A stretch of 64,000 nt of DNA from an uncultured Verrucomicrobiae bacterium (GCA_963749035.1 CAVVKW010000004.1:396717-460716); one strand, 5' to 3'; numbered from the stretch's first letter, positions 3,055-28,236 are shown. Numbers and translations: made by a program. Notes: generated by a model not told the origin, from the letters alone.

Positions 3055-4355
3055 GCGGCGTGGTGTTCGATTAGGTCGCAGGTCCGGTCGGTGGCTCCGA
3101 GGTGGCGAGCGACGATGGGTTGGCCATTGGCAACGAGTTCACGGCGGCGGTCAGGGTCGGCGGCGAGATCGGTGAGGGCGGGCACGAGCGCGTCGGCGTC
3201 GGGGAGCTGGACGGCTCCGTCGTGGCGAACGAGGTCGCGGACGAGGACCTGGAAGTTTTGCATGTGAGGACCGAAAAGGACGGGGCGGTCGGCTTGGATG
3301 GCTTCGGCGGGATTCTGGCCGCCCTTCGCGAGGAAGCTCTTTCCGACGACGACGAGGGTCGCGCAGGAATACCAGTCGCGGAGTTCGCCGGTGGTGTCGA
3401 CGATGATTACATCGAGTTGAGAGTTGAGAGTTGAGGATTGAGAGTTGATTTCCGAACGGAGTTGGACTTGGAGGTCGAGGGACTTGAGGTCGGTGAGAAT
3501 TTCCGGGGTGCGTTCGACGTGGCGGGGGACGCAGATGTAGAACCAGTCGGGGTTCTTCTGGCGGAGAGCGAGGAGGGTTTTGCCGAGGAGCTTTTCTTCA
3601 CCGGGGTGGGTGCTGGCTCCGAGGAGGATGGGGGCGTCGGGTTGGATGCCGAGCTGGTCGAGGAGGGGGCGGAAGTCGCGTTCGGAGGGGGCGGTGGGGT
3701 TGTCGAACTTGATGCTGCCGGTGACGTGAATTTTCTCGCGGCGAACGCCGAGTGACTGCCAGCGGTCGAGGTCCTCGGGGTCGGGCACGCCGATGGCGTC
3801 GAGCTGATTGAAGATGGGGGCGGTGATCCAGCGGGCGCGGCGGTAGCGAGACTCCGAGCGCGGGGAGAGGCGGGCGTTGACGAGCAGGACGCTGGAACCG
3901 GTGGCGCGGACGCCGGCGACAAGGTTCGGCCAGACTTCGGCTTCAATGAGGATGAGCTGGAGCGGGCGAATGAGCGCGATGGCGCGGCGGGTGAAGAGGA
4001 CGAAATCGAGCGGATTGTAAACGGGCTCCAGCCACTCGGAGCGGTTGTCGTTCGCGAGGGCGAATCCGGTCGAGGTGGTGGTCGAGAGAACGAAGGCGCG
4101 GTCGGGGTCGCGCTCGCGGAGGCGGTCGATGAGTTTGAGCGCAATGAGGACTTCGCCGACGCTGACGGCGTGGACCCAGGTGCGACGGCGGGCCGCGAGG
4201 CGGGTGCGGACGTTGGTGGAATAGACGGCGAAACGCTGGCCGAATTTATGCCGGTATTTTCCCCGGCGCAGCATCTTCCAGATGAGCCCGGGGAGCATGA
4301 GGATGACGGCGATCGGGTAGAGCGCGTTGTAGAAAAAGCGGATGATGACGGTCAT
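3051..4355 (-). CDS. waaA: 3-deoxy-D-manno-octulosonic acid (Kdo) transferase
   Basis: 434 aa. N-terminal membrane anchor, WVHAVSVGEV motif, GT30-like C-terminal half (GKSF..GGQNPAEA). Confidence 0.8.
   Translation of the reverse strand: MTVIIRFFYNALYPIAVILMLPGLIWKMLRRGKYRHKFGQRFAVYSTNVRTRLAARRRTWVHAVSVGEVLIALKLIDRLRERDPDRAFVLSTTTSTGFALANDNRSEWLEPVYNPLDFVLFTRRAIALIRPLQLILIEAEVWPNLVAGVRATGSSVLLVNARLSPRSESRYRRARWITAPIFNQLDAIGVPDPEDLDRWQSLGVRREKIHVTGSIKFDNPTAPSERDFRPLLDQLGIQPDAPILLGASTHPGEEKLLGKTLLALRQKNPDWFYICVPRHVERTPEILTDLKSLDLQVQLRSEINSQSSTLNSQLDVIIVDTTGELRDWYSCATLVVVGKSFLAKGGQNPAEAIQADRPVLFGPHMQNFQVLVRDLVRHDGAVQLPDADALVPALTDLAADPDRRRELVANGQPIVARHLGATDRTCDLIEHHAA
3414..3448. repeat. Heptamer tandem repeat (GAGTTGA)x5 inside waaA
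   Basis: gagttga gagttga gagttga ggattga gagttga. Encodes ..NSQSSTLNSQL.. in WaaA. Confidence 0.85.
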
Positions 4356-16272: not shown

Positions 16273-19200
16273 TTACGCCCCTTGATATTTCTTGAAGTTC
16301 TCCGCCTGCTCGAAGATCTCCTTGTAAACCTCATCGTGGGTGATCGGCGGGTAGCCGTTCTCGGCGAGGAGAATGATGAGGTCGACTTTCAGCTCGGCCT
16401 TGATGTCGGCGCGTTGGCTCCAGTCGGTGTATTTGGCTTTGTCGTCGACGACTTCCTTCACCGCCTTGGCTAGCTTGATCAGCTTGTCCTCGGAGTAGGC
16501 GAAGTCGTATTTGACCGAGATGGCTTTGAGGATGTCATAAAAGGACTTTTCTTCGAAATCGATCCCCATCTCGCCGAAGGATTCCTTCTCCCGTTTCAAG
16601 GCGTGGTAGAGGTCGACAATTTCTCCGGCGAAGTCGTCCAGCACGTTGCTGACGAGGACATCCTGCTCGTCGCGCTCGTTGTATTTGCTCACCAACGCCT
16701 GGAACTGCTTCGTAAAATCAACGCCTTTCATCTTGTTGACCTTCTGGAAGTCCTCAATGGCACGTTTCAGCAACTGCTGCAGGAGCTTAATCTTGGTATT
16801 AGGCAGTTTGATCCTCTCAATCTTGGCGAGGTAGTCATCGCCGAAGATGTCGATCTCCGTCGCACCATTCTCGCCGAGTTTGAAAATTTCCTCGATCCCG
16901 TCACTCTGCAGAGCTGCTGAGATCATCTCCCGCACCTTGGCGTTCATCTGGGCGCTGTCGGGGGCTTCGCCCTTGGTCAGCTTGGCGACGATGGAGCGCA
17001 CGGCGAGGTAGAAGTGAATGTGGTCGCGCTCCTGCTGGGTGAAGGCATCGCTGCCGCTGCAGATGTCGTAGGCGGCTTTCAGGCGCTTCACGAGGAACAT
17101 GACCCGCTTCTCGATCTTCTCGGTGAGCTGCACGAACTCCGCGGCCAAGTTCAGGCAGTGCAGTTGCTCGACGGGCGATCCGCTGAAGTAGGGCGTGGTG
17201 TCGAACTGATGGAAAATCCGCGCCAGCAGGTCGAGGTGATCCCGCACCACGATGATGGACGCCTCGATCTCTTCGATGCTGCCACTGTCCGCCTTGGAGT
17301 AGTGTGCCAGCGCTAGGTTCATCTGCTTCTTGATGCCGATGTAGTCGACGACGAGGCCCTTCTTCTTGTTCTCAAACTTCCGGTTCACCCGCGAGATCGT
17401 CTGGATCAGGTTGTGGCGCTGGACCGGCTTGTCGATGTAGATGGTGTCGAGGAAGGGCACGTCAAAGCCCGTCAGCCACATGTCCACCACAATGGCGATT
17501 TTGAAGTTGGATTCGGCCTTCTTGAACTGGGTGTCGAACTTCTTGCGCTCGTCCTTGTTGCCGAGCAGGTCGTAGAGCGCTTTCTCGTCGTCCTTGCCCC
17601 GCGTCATCACCATCTTGAGGCGCTCCATGGGGAGGATTTCTTTCTTCTGCTGGTCGCTCAGCTCCACGCCATCGGCGCAGACCCGCACCTCGGCCCACGC
17701 GGGGCGCAGCTTGATGACTTCCTGGTAAAAGGCGTAGGCGATCTGGCGACTGCTGCTGACAAAGATAGCCTTACCCGCCACGGTGGAGCCTTCCTCGACG
17801 CGCTTCTCGTAGTGCTCTACGAAATCCGCCGCCAGAGCCTCGATGCGTTGTGGATCACCGAGGATCGCGCCCATGTTGGCCATGGTTTTCTTGCTGTCTT
17901 CGATCGCGTAGTAGCTCGCTCCGGCGTCGGCGCATTTGTCGTAGTATTTCTCGATCTCCTCCAGCTTGCTGTTGTCGAGGATGACCTTGGCGGCGCGGCC
18001 TTCGTAAACGATGGGCACGGTGATCTCGTCGGCGACCGACTCGGTCATGGTGTAGCTGTCCACCACCTCGCCGAAGACATCCAGCGTCGCATCGATGGGC
18101 GTGCCAGTGAAGCCCACGTAGGTCGCGTTCGGCAGCGAGTCGTGCAGGTATTTGGCGAAGCCAAAGGTCCGCTTCACCCCGTCTTCGGTGATCCGGAGCT
18201 TCTGGTCCAGATTCACCTGGCTGCGGTGCGCCTCGTCCGAGATACAGATCACGTTGGTGCGATCAGTCAGCCGTTCGGTGTCCTCGGTGAACTTGTGAAT
18301 GGTGGTGAGAAAGACCCCGCCGCTGTTGCGTCCTTTCAAGAGCTCCCGCAGGTGATTGCGGCTCTCCACGCTGATGACCGACTCATCGCCGATGTAGCCC
18401 TTGCCATTGGTGAACAAGCCCGAGAGCTGATCATCCAGATCGGTGCGGTCGGTGATCAGGACCAGGGTCGGGCTGGAGAGAGCCACGCTCTTCATCAGCA
18501 GCCGGGCTAGGAAGAGCATGGTGTAGCTTTTGCCGCAGCCCGTCGCCCCAAAGTAGGTGCCGCCCTTGCCATCGCCTTCCGGCTTCCGATGCTGGAGGAT
18601 GTTCCGAGACAGCTTGGTCGCCGCGTAGTATTGCGGGTAGCGGCAGAGGATCTTCTCCTCCTTGCGCGAGGTGTCGGGCAGATAGACAAAGTTTCGGATG
18701 ACATCCAACAGCCGAGTCTGGTGAAACAGCCCCTTGACCATGGTATCGAGAGATTTAATCCCTTCCGCCTCCTTGAGCTCGCTGCCGTCTGTCTTCCGCC
18801 AGGCATAGAAAAATTCATAGGGAGCGAAGAACGATCCGGATTTTGTGTTCGCCCCATCTGAGATCACACAAACCGCGTTGTATTTGAACAGTTCCGGAAT
18901 ATCCCGCTTGTAACGAGTCGTGAGCTGCACGTAAGCCTCGTGGATTCTGATCTCCTCGCGGATTGCGCTCTTGAATTCAAACACCACCAGGGGCAGGCCG
19001 TTGATGTAGAGGATGCCGTCCGGGACGCGCTTTTCGTAGCCGACGATCTCCAACTGACTGACGATCTTAAAAATGTTGCCGCTCGCTCCGTAGGTCGCCG
19101 CGTCCTCCGCCACGATGGAGGGCACCTCGCCGGGCTCCGGTTCGCGAAAGGCAGCCAGCTCCGAGTAATCGATCAGCTGAATGTAGAGATCCTTCTGGGT

Positions 19201-19491
19201 GTGGTCTTCCCGCTTCAGGAGGAAGCCGTCCGAGACCAGCTTCATGATCGCCTTATTGCTCTCGTAGAGATCCGCCGCCGTGTAGGCTTCGAGCTGCTTG
19301 ATGACCGCCTCGATTTCCTGCGGCGTGATGTGGTCGGCGGAGTATTGCTTGGCGAGGAAGGAGCGGAGGTCGGCTTTGATGAGAACTTCCTGCGGCTGAC
19401 GCTCAATCGCCTCGCCCAACACGTGCGGATATCCCTCGGCTCCGAGAAGCTTGATGATCGCAGATTCGAGTTGGGCTTCGGTGAATTTCAT
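16273..19491 (-). CDS. hsdR: Type I restriction enzyme R subunit
   Basis: Start at MKFTEAQLES (the ATG overlaps the abiEii stop, ATGA). PD-ExK nuclease motif PDGILYINGLPLVVFEFKS, Walker A GATGCGKSYTM, DEAH box ICISDEAHRSQ, long helical C-terminus. Confidence 0.9.
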   Translation of the reverse strand: MKFTEAQLESAIIKLLGAEGYPHVLGEAIERQPQEVLIKADLRSFLAKQYSADHITPQEIEAVIKQLEAYTAADLYESNKAIMKLVSDGFLLKREDHTQKDLYIQLIDYSELAAFREPEPGEVPSIVAEDAATYGASGNIFKIVSQLEIVGYEKRVPDGILYINGLPLVVFEFKSAIREEIRIHEAYVQLTTRYKRDIPELFKYNAVCVISDGANTKSGSFFAPYEFFYAWRKTDGSELKEAEGIKSLDTMVKGLFHQTRLLDVIRNFVYLPDTSRKEEKILCRYPQYYAATKLSRNILQHRKPEGDGKGGTYFGATGCGKSYTMLFLARLLMKSVALSSPTLVLITDRTDLDDQLSGLFTNGKGYIGDESVISVESRNHLRELLKGRNSGGVFLTTIHKFTEDTERLTDRTNVICISDEAHRSQVNLDQKLRITEDGVKRTFGFAKYLHDSLPNATYVGFTGTPIDATLDVFGEVVDSYTMTESVADEITVPIVYEGRAAKVILDNSKLEEIEKYYDKCADAGASYYAIEDSKKTMANMGAILGDPQRIEALAADFVEHYEKRVEEGSTVAGKAIFVSSSRQIAYAFYQEVIKLRPAWAEVRVCADGVELSDQQKKEILPMERLKMVMTRGKDDEKALYDLLGNKDERKKFDTQFKKAESNFKIAIVVDMWLTGFDVPFLDTIYIDKPVQRHNLIQTISRVNRKFENKKKGLVVDYIGIKKQMNLALAHYSKADSGSIEEIEASIIVVRDHLDLLARIFHQFDTTPYFSGSPVEQLHCLNLAAEFVQLTEKIEKRVMFLVKRLKAAYDICSGSDAFTQQERDHIHFYLAVRSIVAKLTKGEAPDSAQMNAKVREMISAALQSDGIEEIFKLGENGATEIDIFGDDYLAKIERIKLPNTKIKLLQQLLKRAIEDFQKVNKMKGVDFTKQFQALVSKYNERDEQDVLVSNVLDDFAGEIVDLYHALKREKESFGEMGIDFEEKSFYDILKAISVKYDFAYSEDKLIKLAKAVKEVVDDKAKYTDWSQRADIKAELKVDLIILLAENGYPPITHDEVYKEIFEQAENFKKYQGA

Positions 19492-20387
19492 GTTGTCGCG
19501 GGGAGCCGTCGCCAATTTTCCGAGGGAACCCAGCGATGATCGGTGACGTCTCCCTTGATCACGGGTGAGAGGAACGCTGAGAGATCGCTGACGACTTCAG
19601 CGAGCGGCGTGGGATTGAGCTTTCCTTTGCGCAGGAAGGCATTCCACTGTAGAAGCTTTTGCTGATTCGTGCTGAACCTCTCGGTGAAAGCCACGGGAGG
19701 TGCTTTGGGAATATTTGCCCCCCGCCGTTCGAAGGTATTGATGACGGCTTCTGTGAGATCGTTCCCGTCGAATTCAGTGTGAGACTGAAGCCAGTGCAGG
19801 TCGAAGAAATCCTTCATCCGGCTGTTGTCGATCCCAAGAGAAACAGCCGCCTCCAGCTTCTCCGCGACTACCGTTTCGGGAGGATACACAAGCAGGCTGG
19901 CACTGGGGAAATCGAGAAGCTCGTGCCATTCCTTTTCCTCCGCAGCCGGCGTAATGGCATCGCCGAATCCCACATCGATCTGAATACCGAGGCGGGCTCC
20001 CGCGAGTCCAACGCCCACCCTGGCCCGGATCCCTCCGTATTCCATCTCTTCACGAATCGGTGCCACGGCAACCTCTTCCCACTCGAGACCATCGTCGGGA
20101 TCGATATCCATCTGAAGCAGCCCGGTGAAGATCGTGTGAATCGCCTCCTCGGTGGGTTCCCCGTATCCGAGAAGGTCCAGATCACGGGTGGGCCGATGTT
20201 CCTCCACCCCCCAAATCCGGAACAGTTGCGCCCCTTTCAACACAAAACGTTCCCGATACTCGCTCTGCGCGAGGCGATAGAGAAAGCGCCCGGTCGCATA
20301 CTGCTCCAGCAAGGCACTCAAAGGCTCTCCCTCTGCACGGGAAAGGTTGAGAAGCCTGGCGCGAACGGAAGCAGCGACGTTTTTCAT
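19488..20387 (-). CDS. abiEii: AbiEii/AbiGii-family nucleotidyltransferase toxin (type IV TA)
   Basis: 299 aa. MKNVAASVRARLLNLSRAEG.., NTase motif RPTRDLDLLGY. Confidence 0.85.
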   Translation of the reverse strand: MKNVAASVRARLLNLSRAEGEPLSALLEQYATGRFLYRLAQSEYRERFVLKGAQLFRIWGVEEHRPTRDLDLLGYGEPTEEAIHTIFTGLLQMDIDPDDGLEWEEVAVAPIREEMEYGGIRARVGVGLAGARLGIQIDVGFGDAITPAAEEKEWHELLDFPSASLLVYPPETVVAEKLEAAVSLGIDNSRMKDFFDLHWLQSHTEFDGNDLTEAVINTFERRGANIPKAPPVAFTERFSTNQQKLLQWNAFLRKGKLNPTPLAEVVSDLSAFLSPVIKGDVTDHRWVPSENWRRLPATT

Positions 20388-20989
20388 ATCATCGCCTCCA
20401 GATAGGGTCTCATCATTTTGCCGACCCGCAGAAGCCGGGCCATTTCGCTGATCTCGCTGAGCTTTGCTTTCCGTTCGTTCAGAGTCTCACGAAGCGCCTC
20501 CACGCAGACGTCGATTCCCAGCTTGTTGCGGTGTTTGAAGCAATCCGCCACCGTCCGTGCCGGGGTCGTGACGGCGACACTGGTGCCGCCGAGCGGGTGG
20601 TGTTCGACCCCCTCTGCTTCGAGCGCTTTCACCCGGGTTCGGATCACCCGGATCGGGGGCCAGTCGATCTTCGGAACCCGCGTCTGCGCCGGGAGTTGAA
20701 TCCAAATCTCATGAGGCGATTGGGTGCCAATCTCGTGAAAACGGAGCGCACTGATCAGCACGACCACAGCCCGCGGGGCGCTCTTGGTGATCTGGATCAG
20801 ATCGTGATGCTCACTGATGGCACTCTCCGGATGTTCATAAATCCCGCGCCGCACCCGAACCAGCGTTCCCTTTTCAACCAGTCGGGAAATACTCCGGTCG
20901 GAAACGCCGGCATCCAGAAGCTGCCGCGTCGTCAGCACCTCATTGGCAGAGGCGAGCGCGGAAAGCTTTTTCTGGAGCGTGGACGTCAT
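20384..20989 (-). CDS. abiEi: AbiEi-family antitoxin / transcriptional regulator
   Basis: 201 aa. N-terminal winged HTH (VLTTRQLLDAGVSDRSISRLVEKGTLVRVRRGIY). 4-nt overlap with abiEii. Confidence 0.8.
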   Translation of the reverse strand: MTSTLQKKLSALASANEVLTTRQLLDAGVSDRSISRLVEKGTLVRVRRGIYEHPESAISEHHDLIQITKSAPRAVVVLISALRFHEIGTQSPHEIWIQLPAQTRVPKIDWPPIRVIRTRVKALEAEGVEHHPLGGTSVAVTTPARTVADCFKHRNKLGIDVCVEALRETLNERKAKLSEISEMARLLRVGKMMRPYLEAMI

Positions 20990-21040: not shown

Positions 21041-21102
21041 ACAGTAAGCCCGACGTCTTTGGTGGGCGCAAAGCGCGCCGAACCCATACTGGCAGCGGAC
21101 GA

Positions 21103-21471
21103 CACTTCGCCAGGCTCCGGCTCGCGAAAGGCAGCCAGCTCCGATTAATCGATCAACTGGATGTAGAGATCCTTCTGGGTGTGGTCCTCGCGCTTGAGGA
21201 GGAAGCCATCCGAGACCAGCTTCATGATCGCCTTGTTGCTCTCGTAGAGATCGGCGGCGGAGTAGGCTTCGAGCCGCTTGATGACCGCCGCGATTTCCTG
21301 CGGCGTGATGTGGTCGGCGGCATATTGCTTGGCGAGGAAGGCCCGCAGGTCGGCTTTGATGAGAACTTCTTGCGATTGGCGCTCAATCGCCTCGCCCAAC
21401 ACGTGCGGGTAGCCCTCGGCTCCGAGGAGCTCGATGATGGCTGATTCGAGTTGGGCTCCGGAGAATTTCAT
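21103..21471 (-). pseudogene. Duplicated 5' fragment of hsdR (first 108 codons, then an in-frame TAA)
   Basis: MKFSGAQLESAIIELLGAEGYPHVLGEAIERQSQ..LYIQLID* matches HsdR residues 1-108 at 99/108 positions. Homology continues about 14 codons past the stop and ends near 21103. Confidence 0.85.
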
Positions 21472-22340
21472 TTTTTCGGATCAACGGAGACTTCTCCGAG
21501 TTTTCGGTCATGCTTCCGTCCAGACTCGAACGCAGTGAAGCCGGGGCGCGGAGTCGTGTTTCGACTGCTGTCATAGTAAACGCTAAGAACGCCTGTTAGG
21601 AGAAACTGAAGAGCCATGTGGTTCTCTTCATCATCGTGCTCTAGCAAAACGAATTCGGCCTTGTCACATTTTCCATTGGGCCTCCGCTTGAAGATGCTCC
21701 AGTCATTGAAGCAGCCCAAGTAACCTACTAAATCCTCAAATCCACTCTGATCTCCGTATACTTCTTGGAGCTTTTCAAAAATCCAATCCTTCGTGTCCTT
21801 TTCCTTCTTTTCGATAAGCGAGGTCATCGAGATCAGGCCCAAATATGGCCGTCTTACCGATTGGCCTCCGCTATCGAAATGAACGCACAGCTCTGAAACA
21901 CGCTTCAATGCCGAGCACTCCTTTACAATATCACCGTCCCGCAGATTCTTCTTTATGGAGAAAACCGCTACCACGCCCTCTGGAGGAACTATCGCGTTTT
22001 TCTCGAAGCGTTGATAGACGGGGAATTTCGATGATTCATATACGATGATATCGAGCTGGCTGGAATGCGCGTCGTTTTCATCCTTTCGAGACCTTCCATT
22101 CAGCCCAGTTTTGACTGCTGGGCGAAGAATGAAACCAGTTAGGATTTCGAGCTCCTTAGGAAGGAACTTTCTCAGGTAAGCAGTAATCAATGACTCTACA
22201 TATCTTCCATCTTCACCTGAGTGAGCGGACCCGGATGTCTCCTTACTTGGAATCAAGATCTGAAATTGACGGTATGTGGCAAGAAGAGCCTCTATCTCAT
22301 TTGAAAAATATTCTCTTATTCGTTTTCCATCCATAGTCAT
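21468..22340 (-). CDS. Hypothetical PD-(D/E)xK-like (DUF6602-style) putative nuclease, partner of the RT
   Basis: 290 aa. GEDGRYVESLITAYLRKFLPKE .. SSQLDIIVYES .. PPEGVVAVFSIKKNL fits the restriction-endonuclease-like pattern (E .. D .. S-x-K variant). The stop overlaps the hsdR-fragment ATG (ATGA). Lower GC than the flanks. Confidence 0.55.
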   Translation of the reverse strand: MTMDGKRIREYFSNEIEALLATYRQFQILIPSKETSGSAHSGEDGRYVESLITAYLRKFLPKELEILTGFILRPAVKTGLNGRSRKDENDAHSSQLDIIVYESSKFPVYQRFEKNAIVPPEGVVAVFSIKKNLRDGDIVKECSALKRVSELCVHFDSGGQSVRRPYLGLISMTSLIEKKEKDTKDWIFEKLQEVYGDQSGFEDLVGYLGCFNDWSIFKRRPNGKCDKAEFVLLEHDDEENHMALQFLLTGVLSVYYDSSRNTTPRPGFTAFESGRKHDRKLGEVSVDPKK

Positions 22341-22408: not shown

Positions 22409-23914
22409 TCAGCGCAAGTCCGCGTCACTCCAGATTGTGTATATCAGGAGCCACTGGGCATCCTGATCTTGTTTCTCTTGGCTCTTTAGATTGTTCGCTC
22501 GTGTTCGTAGCCACTTCTTGACTTTGGTAAGACTCTTTCGGGTGGCGTATTCCCAGAGGAGGACATTACTCAGGCAGTCGTCGATCTGAATGATTGCCTT
22601 AAGTTCGTCTTCCGTGAGGTTGATTTCAAAGTCGTGTTCGATCGCGAAGTAGAGAGCGTGGGCGACCGAGTCTGGCTGAATCTTTTCAATCCCAATTTTG
22701 ATTAACTCGTTTCCAAGATCTTCGATCTGGTCATCCGTTTCGGGGTTTCGATGCTTCACGAACGCGCACTCCTCCATGATGGGAGCGAGATACGGATAGG
22801 CGAGGCAGAGGTTGGTGCCCTCAGCGGTGAACAGGCGCTTCGCTCGATCATTCAACCGCTTTGGCACCATCTTGATTGCATAGTTCAAGACAGCCGAAGT
22901 GCCATGTTGCCTGCTCAATTCGAGGGCGAGATCCAAGAATGAGCGAACAGTCGAAAAGCGAATTTCTTCTTCGGGAAACGTGAATCGATTGAGCTCGTTC
23001 ACCCAGCTAGCAGATACCGGCTGGGGAAGCTCAACGATCTGTGTTTTCTTTTCGTTGAGGTAGAGCTCATATTCGCGGAGCGCCAAATTCAGGTCTCGAA
23101 CAAACGTTTCTGCCTCCTGGTGGCTCGTTGCGTAGAACGTGTAATCGTCGATGTGGCGAGTGAGGCGGGTATAGTCCTTTTTCAGCAGAGTTTCATCAAT
23201 CCTCGTGAGGATGATTTCAGAAATCACGTTTGAAGAATGAGGGCCAATCGCTAAGCCATTGGTTTGATTGTCGGAGAGAATCTGACACGACCTATCGAGT
23301 AGATTTCCCTCCAGGAGGAGGTCGCGATTTCTCTTCGCATTGGCTTTCCCATGAATCGCCCAAGGAATTGAATGGGTGTAGATGCTCGGAAAGCACTTGG
23401 AAATATCAGCCTTAACCAAATGGGTTGCCCCGGTTTGATAGCCGATTTCATCTTCCTCCACCTCGAAGCGTTCCAAGCCTTTGTAGTTCATCTTGAAGAC
23501 GCGGTCTTTGCTCGTTTGCCGAACGAAGATGCGGCTGATCGGCTTTGAGGGCTTGGCGCAATGAGTTTTGATTTTCTGCCAGCACCTCTTGATTGCAAGG
23601 CAGTGCGCTAAGTAACTTTCCGGGTGGGGTATCGCTAAATGGCGAGGAATATTGATGTCTCGCAACGACTGGTATCGGATCTGTGAATGAATGACTTTCT
23701 CAAAGTGTTCTTTGAGCTGATTCGAGTCAGTTTCTGTTTCGATCTTTGCCAGAGCTGCATTGACGTGAGCTGACAGGCCTTCCGAGGTGAAGCACGGCGG
23801 GATCTTCTCAGCGAACAGACCGAATTCGGTGAGTCCTTCAAAGACTCCCTCTGCGCTTAAGTCGCGCCCGGTCGTTTGGCGAAGAATCGCCGAAAAGTTC
23901 AAGGTGGGACTCAT
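22409..23914 (-). CDS. Abi/UG-type (defence-associated) reverse transcriptase with a helical C-terminal domain
   Basis: 501 aa. RT motifs: INIPRHLAIPHPESY (1/2), LVKADISKCFPSIYTHSI (A), NGLAIGPHSSNVISEIIL (B), LTRHIDDYTFYATS (C, xxDD), YELYLNEKKTQI (D). About 200 aa of helical C-terminal region. No En/X/maturase features. The ATG overlaps the hsdS stop (ATGA). Confidence 0.8.
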   Translation of the reverse strand: MSPTLNFSAILRQTTGRDLSAEGVFEGLTEFGLFAEKIPPCFTSEGLSAHVNAALAKIETETDSNQLKEHFEKVIHSQIRYQSLRDINIPRHLAIPHPESYLAHCLAIKRCWQKIKTHCAKPSKPISRIFVRQTSKDRVFKMNYKGLERFEVEEDEIGYQTGATHLVKADISKCFPSIYTHSIPWAIHGKANAKRNRDLLLEGNLLDRSCQILSDNQTNGLAIGPHSSNVISEIILTRIDETLLKKDYTRLTRHIDDYTFYATSHQEAETFVRDLNLALREYELYLNEKKTQIVELPQPVSASWVNELNRFTFPEEEIRFSTVRSFLDLALELSRQHGTSAVLNYAIKMVPKRLNDRAKRLFTAEGTNLCLAYPYLAPIMEECAFVKHRNPETDDQIEDLGNELIKIGIEKIQPDSVAHALYFAIEHDFEINLTEDELKAIIQIDDCLSNVLLWEYATRKSLTKVKKWLRTRANNLKSQEKQDQDAQWLLIYTIWSDADLR

Positions 23915-25323
23915 CCGGCCACATCCTCAACTAGTTCGCTTGTGTCGGAAAGGCGGATTTCCTTGGAGATAAGTTTCGGGAGGAGGGTGTCGCGGAGCTT
24001 TGTGAGGGTTTCTGTAGAGAGTCGGTTCTCGTAACCTCGCGAATAGATTGAGGAAACAGCTCTATTGAATCGGTCAAGCAGCGTCGCGGTCGGCTTGAAG
24101 ACCATGAGTCGCTTCATGTCACCGGCTGTGAAATGCCCGAGCCCCGTGGTTTGTTTGTCCCTGGCAAGCTCCGCGAAGGTGGAGCGGAGATACTTGAGCT
24201 GATAGTAGACGAAGTAGCGTTCGGACTCGTCGTGGAGACGGACGTTGAAGATGTGCTGATTAAGATAGCCGGGGCCGTTTGTCCAAATGAACGTGTCGAT
24301 GGAGGTGTCGGGGTTGCCTGACCAAGAAAGCAGGATGTCACCATCTTCGACTCTGTATTTGTCGCCTTTGTTGTTCGTAGTAAACTTGGTTTGGCCTGTG
24401 ATTCCCGCTTTTACCTCCGCAATTTTAATGACTGGTAAAGCAGCCTCAGCGTCAGAGAAGTCTGCTCCCTTGTAAGCAGCTCCGTTGACGAAATCCGCGA
24501 TGTCGTAGAGAGGCTGAGTTTCCCAGCCTTCCGGGATCGGGCCAAGTTCATCGTAGTATTCAAACGCGGCAGGGAAGAGGGATTGGGGATCAGACAGGGT
24601 TGGGTGGTCGACGGAACCCTGTTGGGTGGTGCCGTTGGCGAGGGCTTTCTTTCGGACTTCGGCGCGGGAGGCGAGTTCGTCGGGGATGGGATTGCCGGCG
24701 GCGAGGGCATTGTCGATCACCGGGTCAAGGTCCACAAACCAGCTTTTGAAGAGCGCCTGCGCCATCCCTTCCAGCGTCGCATTCATCCGCCGATTCAACT
24801 CAATCTTGTCATCCAAGGTGCCCAAGATGTGAGCGATCGCTTTCTGCTCGGGGAGGGGTGGGAGGATGAATGGGACTGCGGAAAGAATGCTCGTATTCAG
24901 GTTAGGCATCGTAGCGCCGATAGCGTGCCGAACGATCCACTCCCGACACTGAGCGCCTCCCAATTGGAATGATGCATACTCCGGATCTACCAATTCTTTG
25001 TCGAATCGAATGCGTAAGCAGCCCGTCCCGCAAAGCCACCCGTCTTCGGCTTCTCTAACCAATGCACGTCGCTCAACATCACCTCGTCTGCTGTAAACGA
25101 CATCTCCAGGTTCGACTCGGTACTTTGAAAGTCGCTCTGCGTCTTCCTCACTGATTCGCGCGATGCTCTCGGTTGTGATCCGGTTGTCGGCGATATTGAC
25201 GGGCATTATCGACGGGATGCCTTCCTCGACATAATCCGACTTATGGAGCTGGCTTCCAAAAGGACCAGTTTGGACGCTTAGAGAAGCATCTGCGAGGGTC
25301 ACCTCTTGCCGCTCACTTCCCAT
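23911..25323 (-). CDS. hsdS: Type I restriction enzyme specificity subunit
   Basis: 470 aa. Two target-recognition halves separated by conserved helical spacers (..LPPLPEQKAIAHILGTLDDKIELNRRMN.. and ..LRDTLLPKLISKEI..). Confidence 0.88.
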   Translation of the reverse strand: MGSERQEVTLADASLSVQTGPFGSQLHKSDYVEEGIPSIMPVNIADNRITTESIARISEEDAERLSKYRVEPGDVVYSRRGDVERRALVREAEDGWLCGTGCLRIRFDKELVDPEYASFQLGGAQCREWIVRHAIGATMPNLNTSILSAVPFILPPLPEQKAIAHILGTLDDKIELNRRMNATLEGMAQALFKSWFVDLDPVIDNALAAGNPIPDELASRAEVRKKALANGTTQQGSVDHPTLSDPQSLFPAAFEYYDELGPIPEGWETQPLYDIADFVNGAAYKGADFSDAEAALPVIKIAEVKAGITGQTKFTTNNKGDKYRVEDGDILLSWSGNPDTSIDTFIWTNGPGYLNQHIFNVRLHDESERYFVYYQLKYLRSTFAELARDKQTTGLGHFTAGDMKRLMVFKPTATLLDRFNRAVSSIYSRGYENRLSTETLTKLRDTLLPKLISKEIRLSDTSELVEDVAG

Positions 25324-25432
25324 ACCCCATGCCCTCCAGGTTTTTCCGAATCACTTCATCCAGCTTTGCCGACTCCTCCATTTGCGCGATTAGCGTCTGG
25401 CTCAGCTCGGTCATTTTAGTCTCAAAGGAAAT
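25313..25432 (-). pseudogene. Duplicated 3' end of hsdM (last ~38 codons) preserved immediately upstream of hsdS
   Basis: SFETKMTELSQTLIAQMEESAKLDEVIRKNLEGMGYGK* versus the intact HsdM C-terminus PFETKMTELSQTLYGQMEESAKLDEVIRKNLEGLGYGK* (34/38). Keeps the ATGGGAAGTGA stop/start junction with hsdS. Confidence 0.85.
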
Positions 25433-25440
25433 CGATCGGT

Positions 25441-26127
25441 TCATGGTTTTGGCCACTTGTTCAGAATTTGATCAATCCACGGCTGCAATCCGGCCTGTCG
25501 GATCGCAACGAATCGGTCGAGGACCGTCGTGAAGTCTTTCAGCTTTGGAGACATCCATTCAATCACATCGAGAATACTTTGATGGCGTTGATCCAGGTCT
25601 TGCCAGTGAGGGATCCGCTCATGATGGAAAACCCGGTTGCGCAGATCGCGAATGTCCTTCCAGCGTCGGTCCAGTTTGTTTTGCACTTGCTCAGTACTTA
25701 GGGCGTGGGGAAATGCCCTCCTTGATAGGAATGCTCCAATACCAGTCCGGGCATGGGCGTTGTTGAAGAATCCAGTCCAGAATCCGAAGTTGAGCTCAGC
25801 GACAATTCTTCCCGGGGTAAGTGGCTTCGTGAGTCTGCTCAAGGTGCGCTTGGCTTCGTCCAGCTTGTCCTGTTGCCAATAGGTGAGTCGTGCTTGGGGC
25901 GAGTCGTACCAGGCATCGGTTCCACACCGTGCAGACAGCTCACGATGCACCGCGTTTCGGAGGGCGATTTCCGAGAATTGGAGTGTAGGGTAGAGGGCCC
26001 CGCTGAGGGCCATATTCAGCAAATAGCGTCCAAGAGTAGTTTTTTCATCCGCCCCATCTTGGCGATAGGCGTCAATCCGCTCTGTATGCAGATTCCCTTC
26101 GACTTCCTTGAAAAAATCGGGATTCAC
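25441..26127 (-). CDS. Abi_2 (AbiD/AbiF-like) HEPN-domain abortive-infection protein
   Basis: 228 aa. EIALRNAVHREL and the HEPN R-x4-H motif in IRDLRNRVFHHERI. Architecture typical of Abi-like proteins inserted in Type I R-M loci. Confidence 0.7.
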   Translation of the reverse strand: MNPDFFKEVEGNLHTERIDAYRQDGADEKTTLGRYLLNMALSGALYPTLQFSEIALRNAVHRELSARCGTDAWYDSPQARLTYWQQDKLDEAKRTLSRLTKPLTPGRIVAELNFGFWTGFFNNAHARTGIGAFLSRRAFPHALSTEQVQNKLDRRWKDIRDLRNRVFHHERIPHWQDLDQRHQSILDVIEWMSPKLKDFTTVLDRFVAIRQAGLQPWIDQILNKWPKP

Positions 26128-26277
26128 AAGCTACTCCTTTCCATGGCTGCTATACGGAATCGTATGCAAAAAGTTTGACGGATAGCCCCTCTGATAGCAA
26201 AGTGTCTCCGTTGACCCCGGGATCCCTTCCTTCGCCGCTCGCGGCTTAGAGGCCCCGGGGTTTCTTTTTGGACGGAA

Positions 26278-27759
26278 TCACTTCCCATACCCCAAGCCCT
26301 CCAAGTTTTTCCGAATCACTTCATCCAGCTTCGCGGATTCCTCCATCTGCCCGTAGAGCGTCTGGCTCAGCTCGGTCATCTTGGTTTCGAACGGAATTCC
26401 GTCGTCCTCCAACGTCGCCGCGCCCACATAGCGTCCGGGAGTGAGCACGAAGTCGTGCTTGCGGATGTCTTCGAGGGTGGCGGATTTGCAGTAGCCTGCC
26501 ACGTCGGCATAGGCCTCGGTGGAGTTTTCAGTGTTCAGTTTTGAGTTTTCAGTTGGAGTTTGGCTTCGCCAGTTGTGGTAAGTCCTTGCGATGTGCTCGA
26601 TATCTTCTGCTGAGAGTTCCTTCTGCGTCCGGCTGATCATGGCGCCGATCTTGCGGGCATCGATGAAGAGGGTCTCGCCTTCGCGGTTGCGATAGTCGCG
26701 TTCGTTGTTGGCCTTTTTGTTTTTGGTCAGGAACCAGAGGCAGACGGGGATCTGGGTGGTGTAGAAGAGTTGGCCGGGCAGGGCGATCATGCAGTCGACG
26801 AGGTCGTTCTCGACGAGTTTTTGGCGGATCTCGCCTTCGCCCTTGGTGTTGGTGGACATGGAGCCGTTGGCGAGGACGAAGCCGGCGACCCCGTTTTCCG
26901 AGAGTTTGCTCACCATGTGGAGAATCCAGGCGTAGTTGGCATTGCCGGTGGGCGGGGTGTCGTAGCCGTTCCAGCGTCCGTCGTGGACGAGTTCGTCGGG
27001 GCCGCGCCAGTCCTTCAGGTTGAAGGGGGGATTGGCCATGATGTAGTCGGCCTTGAGGTCGGGGTGTTGATCCTTGAAGAAAGTGTCGGCGGGGACTTCG
27101 CCGAGGTTGGCGGAGAGCCCGCGCACGGCGAGGTTCATCTTGGCCAGCTTGTAGGTGGTGGCGGCAGACTCCTGCCCGTAGACGGAGATGTCCTTCTTGC
27201 TGCCGTGGTGGCTTTCGACAAACTTGATCGACTGGACGAACATGCCGCCGGAGCCGCAGCAGGGGTCGTAGATCTTGCCTTTGTAGGGCTCGATCATTTC
27301 GGCAATGAGATTGACGACGCACTTCGGGGTGTAGAACTCGCCCCCGAGCTTGCCCTCGGAGGCAGCGAATTTGCCGAGGAAGTATTCATAGACCCGGCCG
27401 ACGGTGTCCTCCTCCTTGTCCTCGACGGTGTCGATGTTGTTGATGGCATCGATGAGGGCGGAGAGCTTGCTGCCATCGAGCCCGAGGCGGGAGAAGTAGT
27501 TGTCGGGCAAGGCGCCCTTGAGCGAGGCATTACTCGCCTCCACGTCGGTGAGGGCGGAGTCGATCTTGATGGCGATGTCGCCCTGCTTGGCATGCTGCTG
27601 GATGTAGGACCAGCGGGAGGTCTCCGGCAGGTAGAAGACATTCTGCATGGTGTAGAACTCGACCATGTCGAGGTAGTCGTCCTTGCCCTCGGCCACGAGC
27701 TCGGCCCGGCGCTCCTCGAAGGATTTGGTGGATTTCTTGATTGGTGTCGGGTTTGACAT
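26278..27759 (-). CDS. hsdM: Type I restriction enzyme methyltransferase subunit
   Basis: Start at MSNPTPIKKST (ATG 27759), 493 aa. AdoMet motif IYDPCCGSGGMF, catalytic IMANPPFN. The upstream extension in the ORF track is a repeat-derived reading. Confidence 0.9.
   Translation of the reverse strand: MSNPTPIKKSTKSFEERRAELVAEGKDDYLDMVEFYTMQNVFYLPETSRWSYIQQHAKQGDIAIKIDSALTDVEASNASLKGALPDNYFSRLGLDGSKLSALIDAINNIDTVEDKEEDTVGRVYEYFLGKFAASEGKLGGEFYTPKCVVNLIAEMIEPYKGKIYDPCCGSGGMFVQSIKFVESHHGSKKDISVYGQESAATTYKLAKMNLAVRGLSANLGEVPADTFFKDQHPDLKADYIMANPPFNLKDWRGPDELVHDGRWNGYDTPPTGNANYAWILHMVSKLSENGVAGFVLANGSMSTNTKGEGEIRQKLVENDLVDCMIALPGQLFYTTQIPVCLWFLTKNKKANNERDYRNREGETLFIDARKIGAMISRTQKELSAEDIEHIARTYHNWRSQTPTENSKLNTENSTEAYADVAGYCKSATLEDIRKHDFVLTPGRYVGAATLEDDGIPFETKMTELSQTLYGQMEESAKLDEVIRKNLEGLGYGK
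26522..26563. repeat. Heptamer-periodic tract (6 units) inside hsdM
   Basis: gagtttt cagtgtt cagtttt gagtttt cagttgg agtttgg. Encodes ..TENSKLNTENSTE... Confidence 0.8.
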
Positions 27760-27845
27760 GTCGGGATATAAAATTTGGTGAAATGGGCCGCGGGATCGCC
27801 GCCGCAGTGCATCCCCGTCTGGCGCCGTTCGGGGTAGCTTGCTAA

Positions 27846-27919
27846 CCACAGATTGCGCAGATGGGCTCGGATAAAGAACTTCAGAAAAACATCTGTGTTC
27901 ATCTGTGAAATCAGTGGTT
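27846..27919. repeat. Inverted, diverged copy of the CACGGATG-type sub-repeat (CACAGATG) upstream of hsdM
   Basis: The minus strand reads aaccactgatttcacagatgaacacagatg, parallel to aaccacggatgacacggattttcacggatg at 30457-30487. Confidence 0.6.
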
Positions 27920-28236
27920 GAACTCCTTGGTGCTTGAAAATTTTGGCGAGGGCCTTGATCAGCATTTTGGCACCCGGATCGGCAGAGGCGTGAGTCGATG
28001 GGGGAGGCCAGCGCATGCAAAACTTGGAGGGTGCCTAATCTGATGCGGAAAGTGAAGTTGATCAGGTGGCGCACGCCTGCTGGGTGTCAGTTTGGGGGCT
28101 GCGGTCGGTCATTGCGGGGTGGAGTTGGGCAGTTCGGGACTCCTGCTTTTGGCGTTGCCGGGGAAGACCTGCGGCGTCGCGGCTCACCCCACGGTGTGGA
28201 TTTGACTCCGTTGGCTGGAAAAGCGATTGCTGGGGG

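Follow-up and report, generated by a model that had tools for sequence, protein, structure and literature searches.

A HEPN-type AbiF-like cassette between two copies of the hsdM 3' end in a Type I restriction-modification operon of an uncultured Verrucomicrobiae bacterium

The operon and its genes

The window, a stretch of 64,000 nucleotides from an uncultured Verrucomicrobiae bacterium (GCA_963749035.1 CAVVKW010000004.1:396717-460716), contains a Type I restriction-modification (R-M) operon, as the domains of HsdM, of HsdS with its two Methylase_S halves and of HsdR were all found. The gene hsdM (26278-28074, minus strand; longest open reading frame 598 residues) was assigned by the Pfam domains N6_Mtase (E = 1.3e-104) and HsdM_N and by similarity to PDB entry 3khk_A (E = 8e-128). 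Alignments with homologs and PDB relatives begin at about residue 112, so that its start probably lies near 27759. The gene hsdS (23911-25323, minus strand; 470 residues) matches Pfam Methylase_S in two stretches, and its TRDs have been swapped, since similarity to relatives is confined to the conserved central and C-terminal regions. The functional copy of hsdR (16273-19491, minus strand) was found by Pfam, with the domains HSDR_N, SWI2_SNF2 and T1RH-like_C, and by PADLOC, as were abiEi (20384-20989) and abiEii (19488-20387) ahead of it. Upstream of abiEi-abiEii lies an hsdR 5' remnant (21097-21478, minus strand) that is stopped by a TAC to TAA change and aligns over 382 bp with 19117-19498 (344 identical positions, 90%). 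Within the same operon AbiE is hence bracketed by copies of a gene end in the same way as the cassette that is the subject of this study, as a preliminary description of the locus had proposed. The block between this remnant and the hsdM remnant described below includes hsdS, DRT4 and DUF6602 and is contiguous; the GC profile does not separate it informatively from its flanks, and GC is low only in DRT4 and DUF6602. Pfam and PADLOC domain scans detected no recombinase domain in the operon or in its hsdM-side flank.

Behind hsdM lies a gene for an Abi_2/AbiF-like HEPN protein of 228 residues (25441-26127, minus strand), which starts with GTG after AAAGGAG. The Pfam Abi_2 match (E = 8.7e-5) scores 23.3 bits, below the curated cut-off of 25.6, and PADLOC assigns the protein to PD-T4-5 (E = 2.3e-14). 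Among 525 homologs many, at 65-82% identity, carry a precomputed PF07751 match, and the HEPN R-x4-H motif (RNRVFHH, residues 163-169) is invariant in 20 homologs. Because a sequence search of the PDB with the Abi_2 profile gave no real match, a fold search was used: with an AF2 model (pLDDT 90.9) Foldseek returned as top match PbAbiF (8vz6_A; probability 1.00, TMq 0.64), all others having a TMq of 0.23 or less. As judged by the predicted model, the protein has the AbiF fold.

A conserved structured element (26200-26274, minus strand), a candidate AbiF-type antitoxin RNA, starts 4 nt past the hsdM stop. In an alignment of 20 sequences (mean identity 81%) it forms 18 pairs, with 87% of cells paired and compensatory changes in 7 pairs, values that 0 of 500 shuffles reached. 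The covariance model R1 scores 86.9 bits on the window element, which occurs as a single copy in the genome. An element with covariation was also found upstream of those Abi_2 homologs that were aligned or pattern-scanned. An Rfam scan of 25200-26500 at E ≤ 1 gave no match, including to the abiF motif RF03085. From an ATG inside the GYGK-stop end of hsdM a bridging ORF of 54 codons (26124-26288, minus strand; no match in a Pfam search) runs to the Abi_2 start, which it overlaps in GTGA. In 21 of 26 loci the equivalent frame stays open over 43 codons or more, as against about 11 of 26 for the other two frames. The bridging ORF may be just an open frame, since the GC-rich spacer often leaves every frame open, which makes the evidence for selection weak. 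A scan of the cassette for promoters and terminators found none. Genomes of the same genus and family contain no close ortholog of the locus and also lack the structured element; the locus is accessory.

Two hsdM ends flank the cassette

In local alignment the direct repeats 25313-25433 and 26278-26399 share 121 aligned bases with one 1-nt gap, of which 106 are identical (88-89%), and at the protein level 35 of 39 residues agree. The repeats are 965-966 bp apart and enclose a unique insert of 844 bp (25434-26277), which begins right after the hsdM stop and consists of the structured element of about 75 nt and the Abi_2 gene. Both copies end in GGGTATGGGAAGTGA and thus contain ATGGGAAGTGA; beyond the TGA, 3' in gene direction, they are unrelated (25280-25312 versus 26245-26277 in local alignment). 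A genome-wide search found the repeat in two copies only, the second with E = 1.1e-35 and the next best match with E = 0.2. The preliminary description had placed an insertion of about 850 bp exactly at the hsdM stop between two hsdM 3' ends, with the hsdM-stop/hsdS-start junction in each and homology breaking off right after the TGA. All of this is borne out by the pairwise alignment, in which the similarity is clear; the homology of 120 bp with 34 of 38 identical codons also stands, with the counts adjusted to the values given above.

The left, upstream copy (26278-26399, minus strand) is, by alignment and genome search, the true hsdM C-terminal tail, reading IPFETKMTELSQTLYGQMEESAKLDEVIRKNLEGLGYGK before the stop and ending in ATGGGAAGTGA, and hsdM tails from empty metagenomic operons match it at 88-95% identity. 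The right copy is contained in a remnant or relay ORF (25313-25444, minus strand) encoding MNRSISFETKMTELSQTLIAQMEESAKLDEVIRKNLEGMGYGK, delimited by the alignment and by its overlaps. This ORF had been read as 31 codons and is better taken as 43 codons from the ATG at 25444-25442, which overlaps the Abi_2 TGA (ATGA at 25444-25441); weak homology to the hsdM codons for DDGIPFE extends up to this ATG. At its other end the TGA overlaps the hsdS ATG, which sits inside the remnant's Y-G codons, in the junction ATGGGAAGTGA at 25313-25323. In empty relatives the identical ATGGGAAGTGA joins hsdM straight to hsdS, so that the remnant does recreate the native overlap, as had been suggested. The right copy also holds the hsdS Shine-Dalgarno (SD) sequence GGAGGG, read from the sequence, 9 nt ahead of the hsdS ATG; with a strong SD of its own, hsdS perhaps does not need the relay.

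At most of the 17 sites that differ between the copies in the window, the right copy has a common variant of working hsdM alleles. Its specific changes comprise 6 synonymous and 4 nonsynonymous ones (P about 0.03 versus neutral decay, a hand-calculated binomial based on about 10 changes). By sequence, the right copy has the appearance of a functional hsdM allele and not of a decaying pseudogene, which points to recombination with other hsd operons. A second hsd operon that might have been the donor was looked for in the genome and none was found.

Relatives of the locus and other cassettes

How old is this arrangement? The metagenome contig L097 is collinear with the window over 1125 nt (82%), has the same junction, nearly the same repeat spacing (965 vs 966) and an intact orthologous 43-codon ORF. 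The sequence comparison identifies it as an ortholog; the repeat layout is inherited and not a fresh local duplication. Moreover, the ATGA junction between the Abi_2 stop and the remnant start is common to the Abi_2 family. A fresh duplication in situ was ruled out by the junction shared with L097 and by the allelic variants in the right copy. The identity matrix with L097 yields a star tree, which would also fit a single duplication not long before the two diverged and faster subsequent drift of the right copies.

The closest Abi_2 relatives (L049, L050 and L045) keep only the last 30 nt of the tail plus a spacer. This piece is 93-100% identical to the window, its flanks 75-84%. The linker of L045 has no ATG-initiated ORF in the tail frame, and in L040 hsdS follows Abi_2 directly with no remnant. 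As relatives keep 30 nt or nothing, the constraint acts on the hsdS initiation region and not on the peptide. The region is rich in GC, which makes open frames weakly informative. Of the proposal that the remnant preserves the coupling signals of hsdS, the constraint on the initiation region therefore holds, whereas the long remnant is dispensable.

Matching Abi_2 layouts beside hsdM ends were found in about 15 other loci, and among operons 80-98% identical in hsdM there are some with an empty hsdM/hsdS junction. Within this hsdM lineage the slot also takes other cargo, namely a type-2 Abi_2 in L052 and L085 and KilA-N in L056 and L076. Analogous flanking repeats of 30-66 nt (54-66 nt where measured) accompany DUF1016 (L088, 66 nt, 95%), IVP-like (L058, 65 nt, 93%), ORF6N (L081, 54 nt, 81%), KilA-N and AlbA_2 cassettes, the AlbA_2 cassette of L057 being flanked by an hsdM-tail repeat. 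These repeats are independent and vary in their 5' edges, but on the 3' side all of them end at the hsdS start. The window, L058, L088, L081 and L097 each have a directly repeated 3' end of the upstream gene, the downstream copy of which abuts the start of the next gene. In L034 and L039 cassettes are stacked, a tail copy following each and the ORFs being chained by ATGA overlaps. Insertions inside remnants, with lengths of 30 or 48 nt, are in frame. Some loci have a right remnant that shares 89-94% identity with the remnants of other loci but only 56-69% with the hsdM tail of its own operon, which shows exchange between operons. Of the recurrent, recombination-based loading of cassettes that had been proposed, the recurrence is upheld by these Abi_2 loci and the unrelated cassettes, and recombination itself is suggested by the sequence patterns. 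A literature search found no description of duplicated or truncated hsdM ends at cassette borders.

Origin and role of the repeats

The overlap of hsdM and hsdS and their translational coupling have been described (PMC3510504), and the C-terminal 43 or so residues of HsdM are required for assembly with HsdS (PMC2647291). In this operon family the stop of hsdM and the start of hsdS overlap, and the ribosome-binding site of hsdS lies within the last 25 nt or so of hsdM. For an AbiF-like cassette of structured RNA element and Abi_2 HEPN gene to be nested directly behind the hsdM stop with both genes left unbroken, the hsdM 3' end would have to occur twice, because hsdM needs its own end and hsdS needs an SD and an ATG. 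We consider it probable, at roughly 65%, that the two hsdM ends bracket the cassette for this reason, the right copy being kept or refreshed by recombination and serving hsdS initiation. The left copy would complete HsdM, its last 43 or so residues presumably being the HsdS-binding helix, and the right copy would provide the hsdS initiation region; ribosomes leaving Abi_2 could pass via the short open frame into hsdS. As to the origin, the junction would be old, being common to the Abi_2 family, and the repeats would not stem from a fresh in-situ duplication. Rather, tails of other hsdM alleles may have maintained or renewed the right copy through homologous recombination, for instance when hsdS was swapped. 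As portable homology, the conserved tails could let related operons exchange, stack or lose cassettes and hsdS alleles. Recombination intermediates or recent excision products were not seen.

It could further be imagined, although only tentatively, that the hsdM tail with its helix codons and the hsdS SD and ATG constitutes a recombinase-free cassette-array system. A tail copy, delivered with or acquired by each nested defence gene, would be both the initiation region of the next gene and a homology arm, allowing insertion, stacking, swapping and clean excision of cassettes and hsdS alleles. Optionally, a free 43-residue peptide would bind HsdS and couple the Abi toxin to the R-M complex.

Alternatively, the right copy could encode a functional small protein, a free HsdM C-terminal helix that binds the HsdS coiled-coil and tunes M2S1 assembly or links the Abi_2 toxin to the state of the R-M system, comparable to PrrC in EcoprrI. 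The ORF does match the tail of about 43 residues through which HsdM binds HsdS (PMC2647291); both the window and L097 have it intact, with changes biased to synonymous ones, and many orphan tails start at the same domain boundary (PFEEKM). Furthermore, in some long Abi_2 proteins (P0052, L027, L033) the C-terminus is a fused tail piece, ESAKREQAIKANLRGLSYGG. Type IB systems carry the helix on HsdS (PMC3510504), and L022 has its remnant fused to hsdS. Such a protein is nevertheless unlikely, as only the last 9-10 codons are left in the closest relatives, L040 dispenses with the remnant, remnants tolerate REP-like insertions of 10-16 residues in the middle of the helix, and the 5' half varies more than that of true tails and is scrambled in L097.

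Another possibility is that the repeats are debris of two fused hsd operons. A block hsdM_B-hsdS-DRT4-DUF6602-hsdR_B would have landed in or beside an operon with Abi_2 and AbiE, and deletions would have left the last 121 bp of hsdM_B and the first 430 bp or so of hsdR_B, with boundaries of no functional reason. Both remnants in the window do differ from the working genes by about 10%, with synonymous sites predominating, they enclose a contiguous block, and the right copy resembles natural alleles. We regard this origin as improbable, however, since the ATGA junction is common to L097 and distant Abi_2 loci and so predates the present composition of the operon; in addition, the remnant 3' ends coincide exactly with the hsdS start in independent cassettes, reading frames are preserved, and L049 and L050, with different TRDs and neighbours, partly show the same junction with an unrelated hsdS-to-hsdR block. 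Finally, that the repeats are target-site duplications made by a transposase, integrase or RAYT inserting at the hsdM/hsdS junction might be surmised from the direct repeats flanking the inserts, from RAYT (Y1_Tnp) genes and REP-like hairpins near tails in L034, L075 and L089 and from a cassette swap in L056 whose end coincides exactly with the structured element's 3' edge, but is most improbable, given that the window's operon lacks the make-up of a transposon- or integron-type mobile cassette, having no recombinase gene in or beside it, that the repeats measure 30 to 239 nt and differ by event, that the copies are 81-96% identical and hence not the same, and that the structured element is absent from most cassettes with tail repeats.

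Comparison with known systems

AbiF proteins are controlled by a cis-encoded RNA antitoxin (PMC12737573; bioRxiv 10.1101/2025.04.15.648962). PbAbiF-AbiFr (PDB 8VZ6) and RCd22-AbiFCd of C. difficile resemble the window protein in fold, 8vz6_A being its sole meaningful PDB match. It also has the R-x4-H HEPN motif of these type III toxin-antitoxin systems and, directly upstream of its gene, a conserved structured non-coding element. In contrast to them, the window cassette is nested in an operon, a promoter or terminator of its own was not detected, and the element is one hairpin unit instead of two motifs and does not match RF03085. The protein is a putative toxin, known here from its sequence and predicted fold.

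Defence genes embedded in Type I R-M operons, such as PrrC in EcoprrI, have been catalogued (Payne et al., bioRxiv 10.1101/2024.01.29.577857), and the HEPN-type Abi gene, the DRT4 reverse transcriptase, the DUF6602 nuclease and AbiE are likewise nested on the same strand, co-oriented, among hsdM, hsdS and hsdR. In the text that was searched this survey does not describe duplicated gene ends at the borders or preserved hsdS initiation; there 'recombination' is absent and 'duplicat' occurs once in an unrelated sense. Coupled hsdM-hsdS genes and Type IB systems (Roberts et al., 2012, PMC3510504) share the stop/start overlap and the HsdM tail as a separable module beside the HsdS N-terminus; in L022 the remnant is joined in frame to hsdS. 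The window differs in having the tail twice, on HsdM and as a free-standing short ORF before hsdS, with a foreign cassette between. Campbell-type integration or homology-facilitated illegitimate recombination also places an insert between direct repeats of host sequence with different allelic variants, and recombination between the window repeats would restore the empty site; a circular intermediate, a donor or an excision product was, however, not observed, and the boundaries in the window are inherited across lineages. Integron attC arrays likewise consist of promoter-less cassettes in one orientation with a fixed entry point and a short repeat after each, as in L034, L039 and L056. Here, in contrast, there is neither an integrase nor an attC-like site, the repeated sequence is the coding end of a gene and doubles as the initiation region of the gene behind it, and any exchange would depend on general homologous recombination.

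The embedding of defence genes in R-M, BREX and similar operons now serves the discovery of immune systems. To our knowledge, how genes enter and leave tightly coupled operons without breaking them has so far had no explanation. The structured element adds a new RNA candidate tied to an AbiF-fold toxin in Verrucomicrobiota. Gene-end repeats would offer a concrete and testable answer to the question of entry and exit, as they duplicate the overlap, preserve the downstream initiation signals and provide homology for the exchange of cassettes and specificity genes, and orphan hsdM tails may serve as a sequence signature for finding embedded or relocated cassettes.

Repeats at the borders of the cassette

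All operon genes discussed here are annotated on the minus strand of the window and are transcribed in the order hsdM (28074/27759..26278), a spacer of 150 nt, the Abi_2 gene (26127..25441), a short remnant ORF (25444..25313) and hsdS (25323..23911). A DRT4 reverse transcriptase and a DUF6602 nuclease follow 3' of hsdS and, 3' of the nuclease, a 5' fragment of hsdR, abiEi and abiEii, and hsdR itself. Local alignment pairs the stretch before hsdS (25313-25433, the right copy) with the true 3' tail of hsdM (26278-26399, the left copy) over 121 aligned bases with one gap and 88-89% identity. Both copies end in ..GGGTATGGGAAGTGA, are unrelated 3' of the TGA and are separated by 844 bp of unique DNA. 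Since the repeats, the shared end and the break after the TGA were all found, the preliminary description of a cassette bracketed by duplications of the hsdM 3' end was correct. A whole-genome search of the 3.79-Mb assembly found two copies of the tail repeat only (second copy E=1.1e-35, next match E=0.2). The remnant ORF, originally put at 31 codons, is better described as 43 codons (MNRSISFETKMTELSQTLIAQMEESAKLDEVIRKNLEGMGYGK*), starting most plausibly at the ATG at 25444 that overlaps the Abi_2 TGA (ATGA), and similarity to the ..DDGIPFE.. codons of hsdM is still visible in its opening codons. The AbiE insertion, proposed to be built alike with a duplicated gene terminus of about 90% identity, indeed shows this design: two copies of the 5' end of hsdR, 382 bp long (21097-21478 and 19117-19498, 90% identical), lie on either side of abiEi-abiEii, the upstream one being closed by TAC>TAA. 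Divergence of this hsdR 5' remnant, about 10% and mostly synonymous, is at the same level as that of the hsdM tail repeat.

An AbiF-like protein and a structured element

What has been inserted between hsdM and hsdS? The 228-aa protein matches Pfam Abi_2 just under threshold and PADLOC PD-T4-5 at 2e-14, and it has more than 500 homologs, chiefly in Verrucomicrobiota. Its RNRVFHH motif is invariant across 20 homologs. The sole meaningful PDB neighbour of an AlphaFold model with 20 homologs as input (pLDDT 90.9) is PbAbiF with bound ncRNA (8vz6_A, probability 1.00, TMq 0.64); the remaining fold matches reach TMq ≤0.23. Homologs of 300-318 aa (proteins P0020, P0036, P0052 and P0091; L027:1477-2433 and L039:1217-2173, L-handles denoting compared loci from other genomes or metagenomes) have an extra C-terminal domain of about 75 aa (..GHRWGGDV..LDVMNEYVVFLKAE..), and an ending resembling ..EYVTFLKA.. 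is also found at the C-terminus of a DUF1016/YhcG protein (L066).

A structured RNA encoded in cis is reported to neutralise AbiF/Abi_2 toxins (PMC12737573; bioRxiv 10.1101/2025.04.15.648962). Directly 3' of the hsdM stop lies an element of about 75 nt (26200-26274, minus strand) that is present in every homologous locus aligned or pattern-scanned (the window, L021-L041, L045, L049, L050, L052, L085 and L097). Its conservation exceeds that of the protein (81% mean nucleotide identity), and its fold consists of an outer stem of 7 bp plus an inner hairpin, with 87% of cells paired, compensatory changes in 7 pairs and 0 of 500 shuffles reaching the observed values. The element matches no Rfam family, is single-copy in the source genome and was detected in no more than 4 of 141 related genomes. 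It is a candidate for a new AbiF-associated antitoxin RNA of Verrucomicrobiota, and the insert is interpreted as a type III toxin-antitoxin cassette resembling AbiF, in which the protein has the AbiF fold and the RNA would act as antitoxin.

Orphan copies of the element without an adjacent Abi_2 or hsd gene exist (L072:1500-1575, L073:1500-1575, L074:1500-1575), two of them just past the end of an unrelated gene. In L056 (3298-3400) and L052 (reverse-oriented copy, 4173-4260) one element variant is followed by Abi_2 or by KilA-N, depending on the locus. The outer stem's 3' edge is precisely where homology between the two stops, a hint that this edge is a preferred breakpoint. Furthermore, a 54-codon ORF (26124-26288, minus strand) runs from an ATG inside the hsdM tail through the element to a GTGA overlapping the Abi_2 start; an equivalent frame is open in 21 of 26 loci, in differing register relative to the element.

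Recurrence of the arrangement

A search with the Abi_2 protein recovered 24 genome loci, 21 of which encode full-length relatives, and in most of the latter a complete hsdM, or at minimum a decayed hsdM tail, lies directly upstream of the element. Abi_2 genes flanked by hsdM C-terminal fragments, which the preliminary description proposed to look for, were found: seven loci have a separate tail-derived ORF 3' of Abi_2 (L021, L022, L024, L026, L028, L034, L039), and the longer Abi_2 of L027 and of L033 has a short stretch of the tail fused onto its C-terminus. The remnant ORFs start at an ATG overlapping the Abi_2 stop and end in G-Y-G-x* codons that contain the ATG of the next gene. Remnants can be serial, as in L039 (Abi_2, R1, R2 joined through ATGA, then hsdS), and the stack in L034 comprises two Abi_2 paralogs together with three remnants. 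L097, a contig from a metagenome, matches the window at 82% identity over 1125 nt, with the same junction, a repeat spacing of 965 (966 in the window) and an intact remnant ORF (MSRLFPDKISVSEMSQTLHGQMEESAKLDRVIRKNLEGLGYGK*). It is an ortholog of the window arrangement, and because junction, spacing and intact ORF are shared, the duplication predates the lineage of the source genome. In L022 (4683-5166) a 1-nt shift puts the tail remnant in frame with hsdS, and the fusion product carries an N-terminal HsdM-tail helix, similar to a Type IB HsdS. In a related operon, L045 (3084-4787), an OLD-like AAA_15/TOPRIM gene lies between hsdS and hsdR where the window has DRT4, DUF6602 and AbiE; the same slots thus hold different cargo.

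The suggested recurrent loading of cassettes into hsd operons is borne out by tail repeats around unrelated cargo. When the tail profile was run against 401 genomes of the phylum, the family was found in 88, with about 20 further matches in short ORFs. L058 has hsdM, an IVP-like four-helix gene that starts from an ATG within the hsdM tail, a remnant ORF that overlaps the genes on either side, and hsdS, with repeats of 65 nt (93% identical). In L057 a remnant lies after an AlbA_2/HATPase gene and has the lineage-specific ..EQQA.AAKLDAAIAANLK.. in common with its own hsdM, and L056 has the order element, KilA-N, tail fragment, linker, hsdS. In L061, L066 and L062, away from any hsdM, DUF1016/YhcG and IVP-like genes take their start codon from orphan tails. 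In addition, a metagenome scan with a 23-nt initiation-region pattern returned 41 loci, about 12 of them empty junctions, in which hsdM directly joins hsdS (for example L084, L087, L090, L091, L104, L114, L115), with the operon HsdM 80-98% identical to that of the window. Filled junctions contain DUF1016 (L088, repeats of 66 nt, 95%, with a cassette protein that has MAGE at its N-terminus, as HsdS does, and the tail at its C-terminus), ORF6N (L081 and L093; 54 nt, 81%), KilA-N with a HEPN/NTase_sub_bind gene (L076, L082) or a Gp49/HTH pair (L102), and L103 has a 239-nt tandem repeat at the junction. The right copy has a 5' edge that varies by case (about 121, 99, 80, 66, 54, 35 and 30 nt) and a 3' end that is the hsdS start in every case. 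Such a pattern would be expected of many separate events, or of progressive trimming, filtered by the need for hsdS initiation. An hsdM fragment in L054 (2221-2448, residues ~528-564) ends in ..DDGEPFE, the usual starting point of tail remnants, which makes this linker a possible recurrent breakpoint.

Constraint on the right copy and its origin

The closest Abi_2 relatives are those of L049 (87%), L045 (82%) and L050 (79%), and the hsdM tails of L045 and L050, the two of these three with the hsdM end on the contig, are window-like. In all three the right copy is reduced to ATGA, a CATCATTCA-rich spacer of about 45 nt and the last 30 nt, AACTTGGAGGGCTTGGGGTATGGGAAGTGA. This terminal 30-mer contains the SD (GGAGG) and the hsdS ATG and is 93-100% identical to the window, versus 75-84% for the surrounding DNA. 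The reduced linker unit occurs twice in L050, once behind hsdM and once behind Abi_2. In L067 a linker ORF of this kind lies between hsdM and hsdS without any cassette, and in L040 the remnant is absent. Since the closest relatives keep the 30-mer alone and L040 lacks a remnant, the invariant piece is the hsdS initiation region and the long helix-coding part is dispensable. Moreover, REP-like insertions, 30 or 48 nt long and always in frame, lie within remnants elsewhere (L021:4693-4857, L022, L024:4711-4875, L039:2148-2434, L034:4699-4863). Because these insertions break the helix and keep the frame, they favour the view that an open frame up to the hsdS start, rather than a peptide, is maintained. 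They translate as HVRRSLGAGG or SLLSRWERPGEGAC, and RAYT (Y1_Tnp) genes adjoin hsdM tails in L034, L075 and L089.

Is the right copy a pseudogene decaying in place? It does not behave like one, judging by the following comparisons. Comparison of 13 hsdM tails (12 from empty junctions, one from the filled L085) at the 17 sites at which the window copies differ shows that most right-copy states are common natural hsdM variants and that the left copy is the odd one at two sites; truly right-copy-specific changes are few (an ACT third position, and CTA-ATC, which leads to Y>I). A count relative to L097 and the alleles gives 6 synonymous and 4 nonsynonymous nucleotide changes specific to the right copy, for which a hand-calculated binomial P of about 0.03 against neutral decay comes from few sites in related sequences. 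Four-way identities between window and L097 (left-left 93, within-locus 88-90, right-right 84) are star-like, the right copies evolving faster without a shared right-copy branch. At other loci the hsdS-adjacent remnant shares 89-94% identity with remnants from elsewhere and only 56-69% with its own hsdM tail, and the hsdS TRDs differ among close relatives. Taken jointly with the hsdR parallel, these observations suggest that the right copy, which resembles the tail of a functional hsdM allele, was imported or renewed through recombination. A likely occasion for this is an hsdS allele swap with a crossover in the tail.

A working model for the locus

Type I R-M operons with nested defence genes have been described before (PrrC; Payne et al. 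2024). Abi_2/HEPN genes are no surprise in such operons, and AbiF and its RNA have also been described. The literature searched contains no description of duplicated gene ends at cassette borders or of a 3' end held constant at the start codon that follows, and relay ORFs and tail-delimited cassette stacks are likewise undescribed in it. No recombinase gene is found in or beside the window operon. Locus geometry, overlaps, SD position, conservation of the terminal 30 nt and the occurrence of empty, filled and differently filled alleles are plain from the sequences. HsdM and HsdS are translationally coupled via the gene overlap (PMC3510504), and the last ~43 residues of HsdM form the HsdS-binding tail (PMC2647291). 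The left copy would complete HsdM, and the right copy would preserve hsdS initiation and relay ribosomes from Abi_2. The tails could provide homology for insertion, by Campbell-like or one-sided homologous events, and the same homology may serve the stacking of cassettes and the exchange of hsdS, while recombination between the repeats would lead to clean loss of the cassette.
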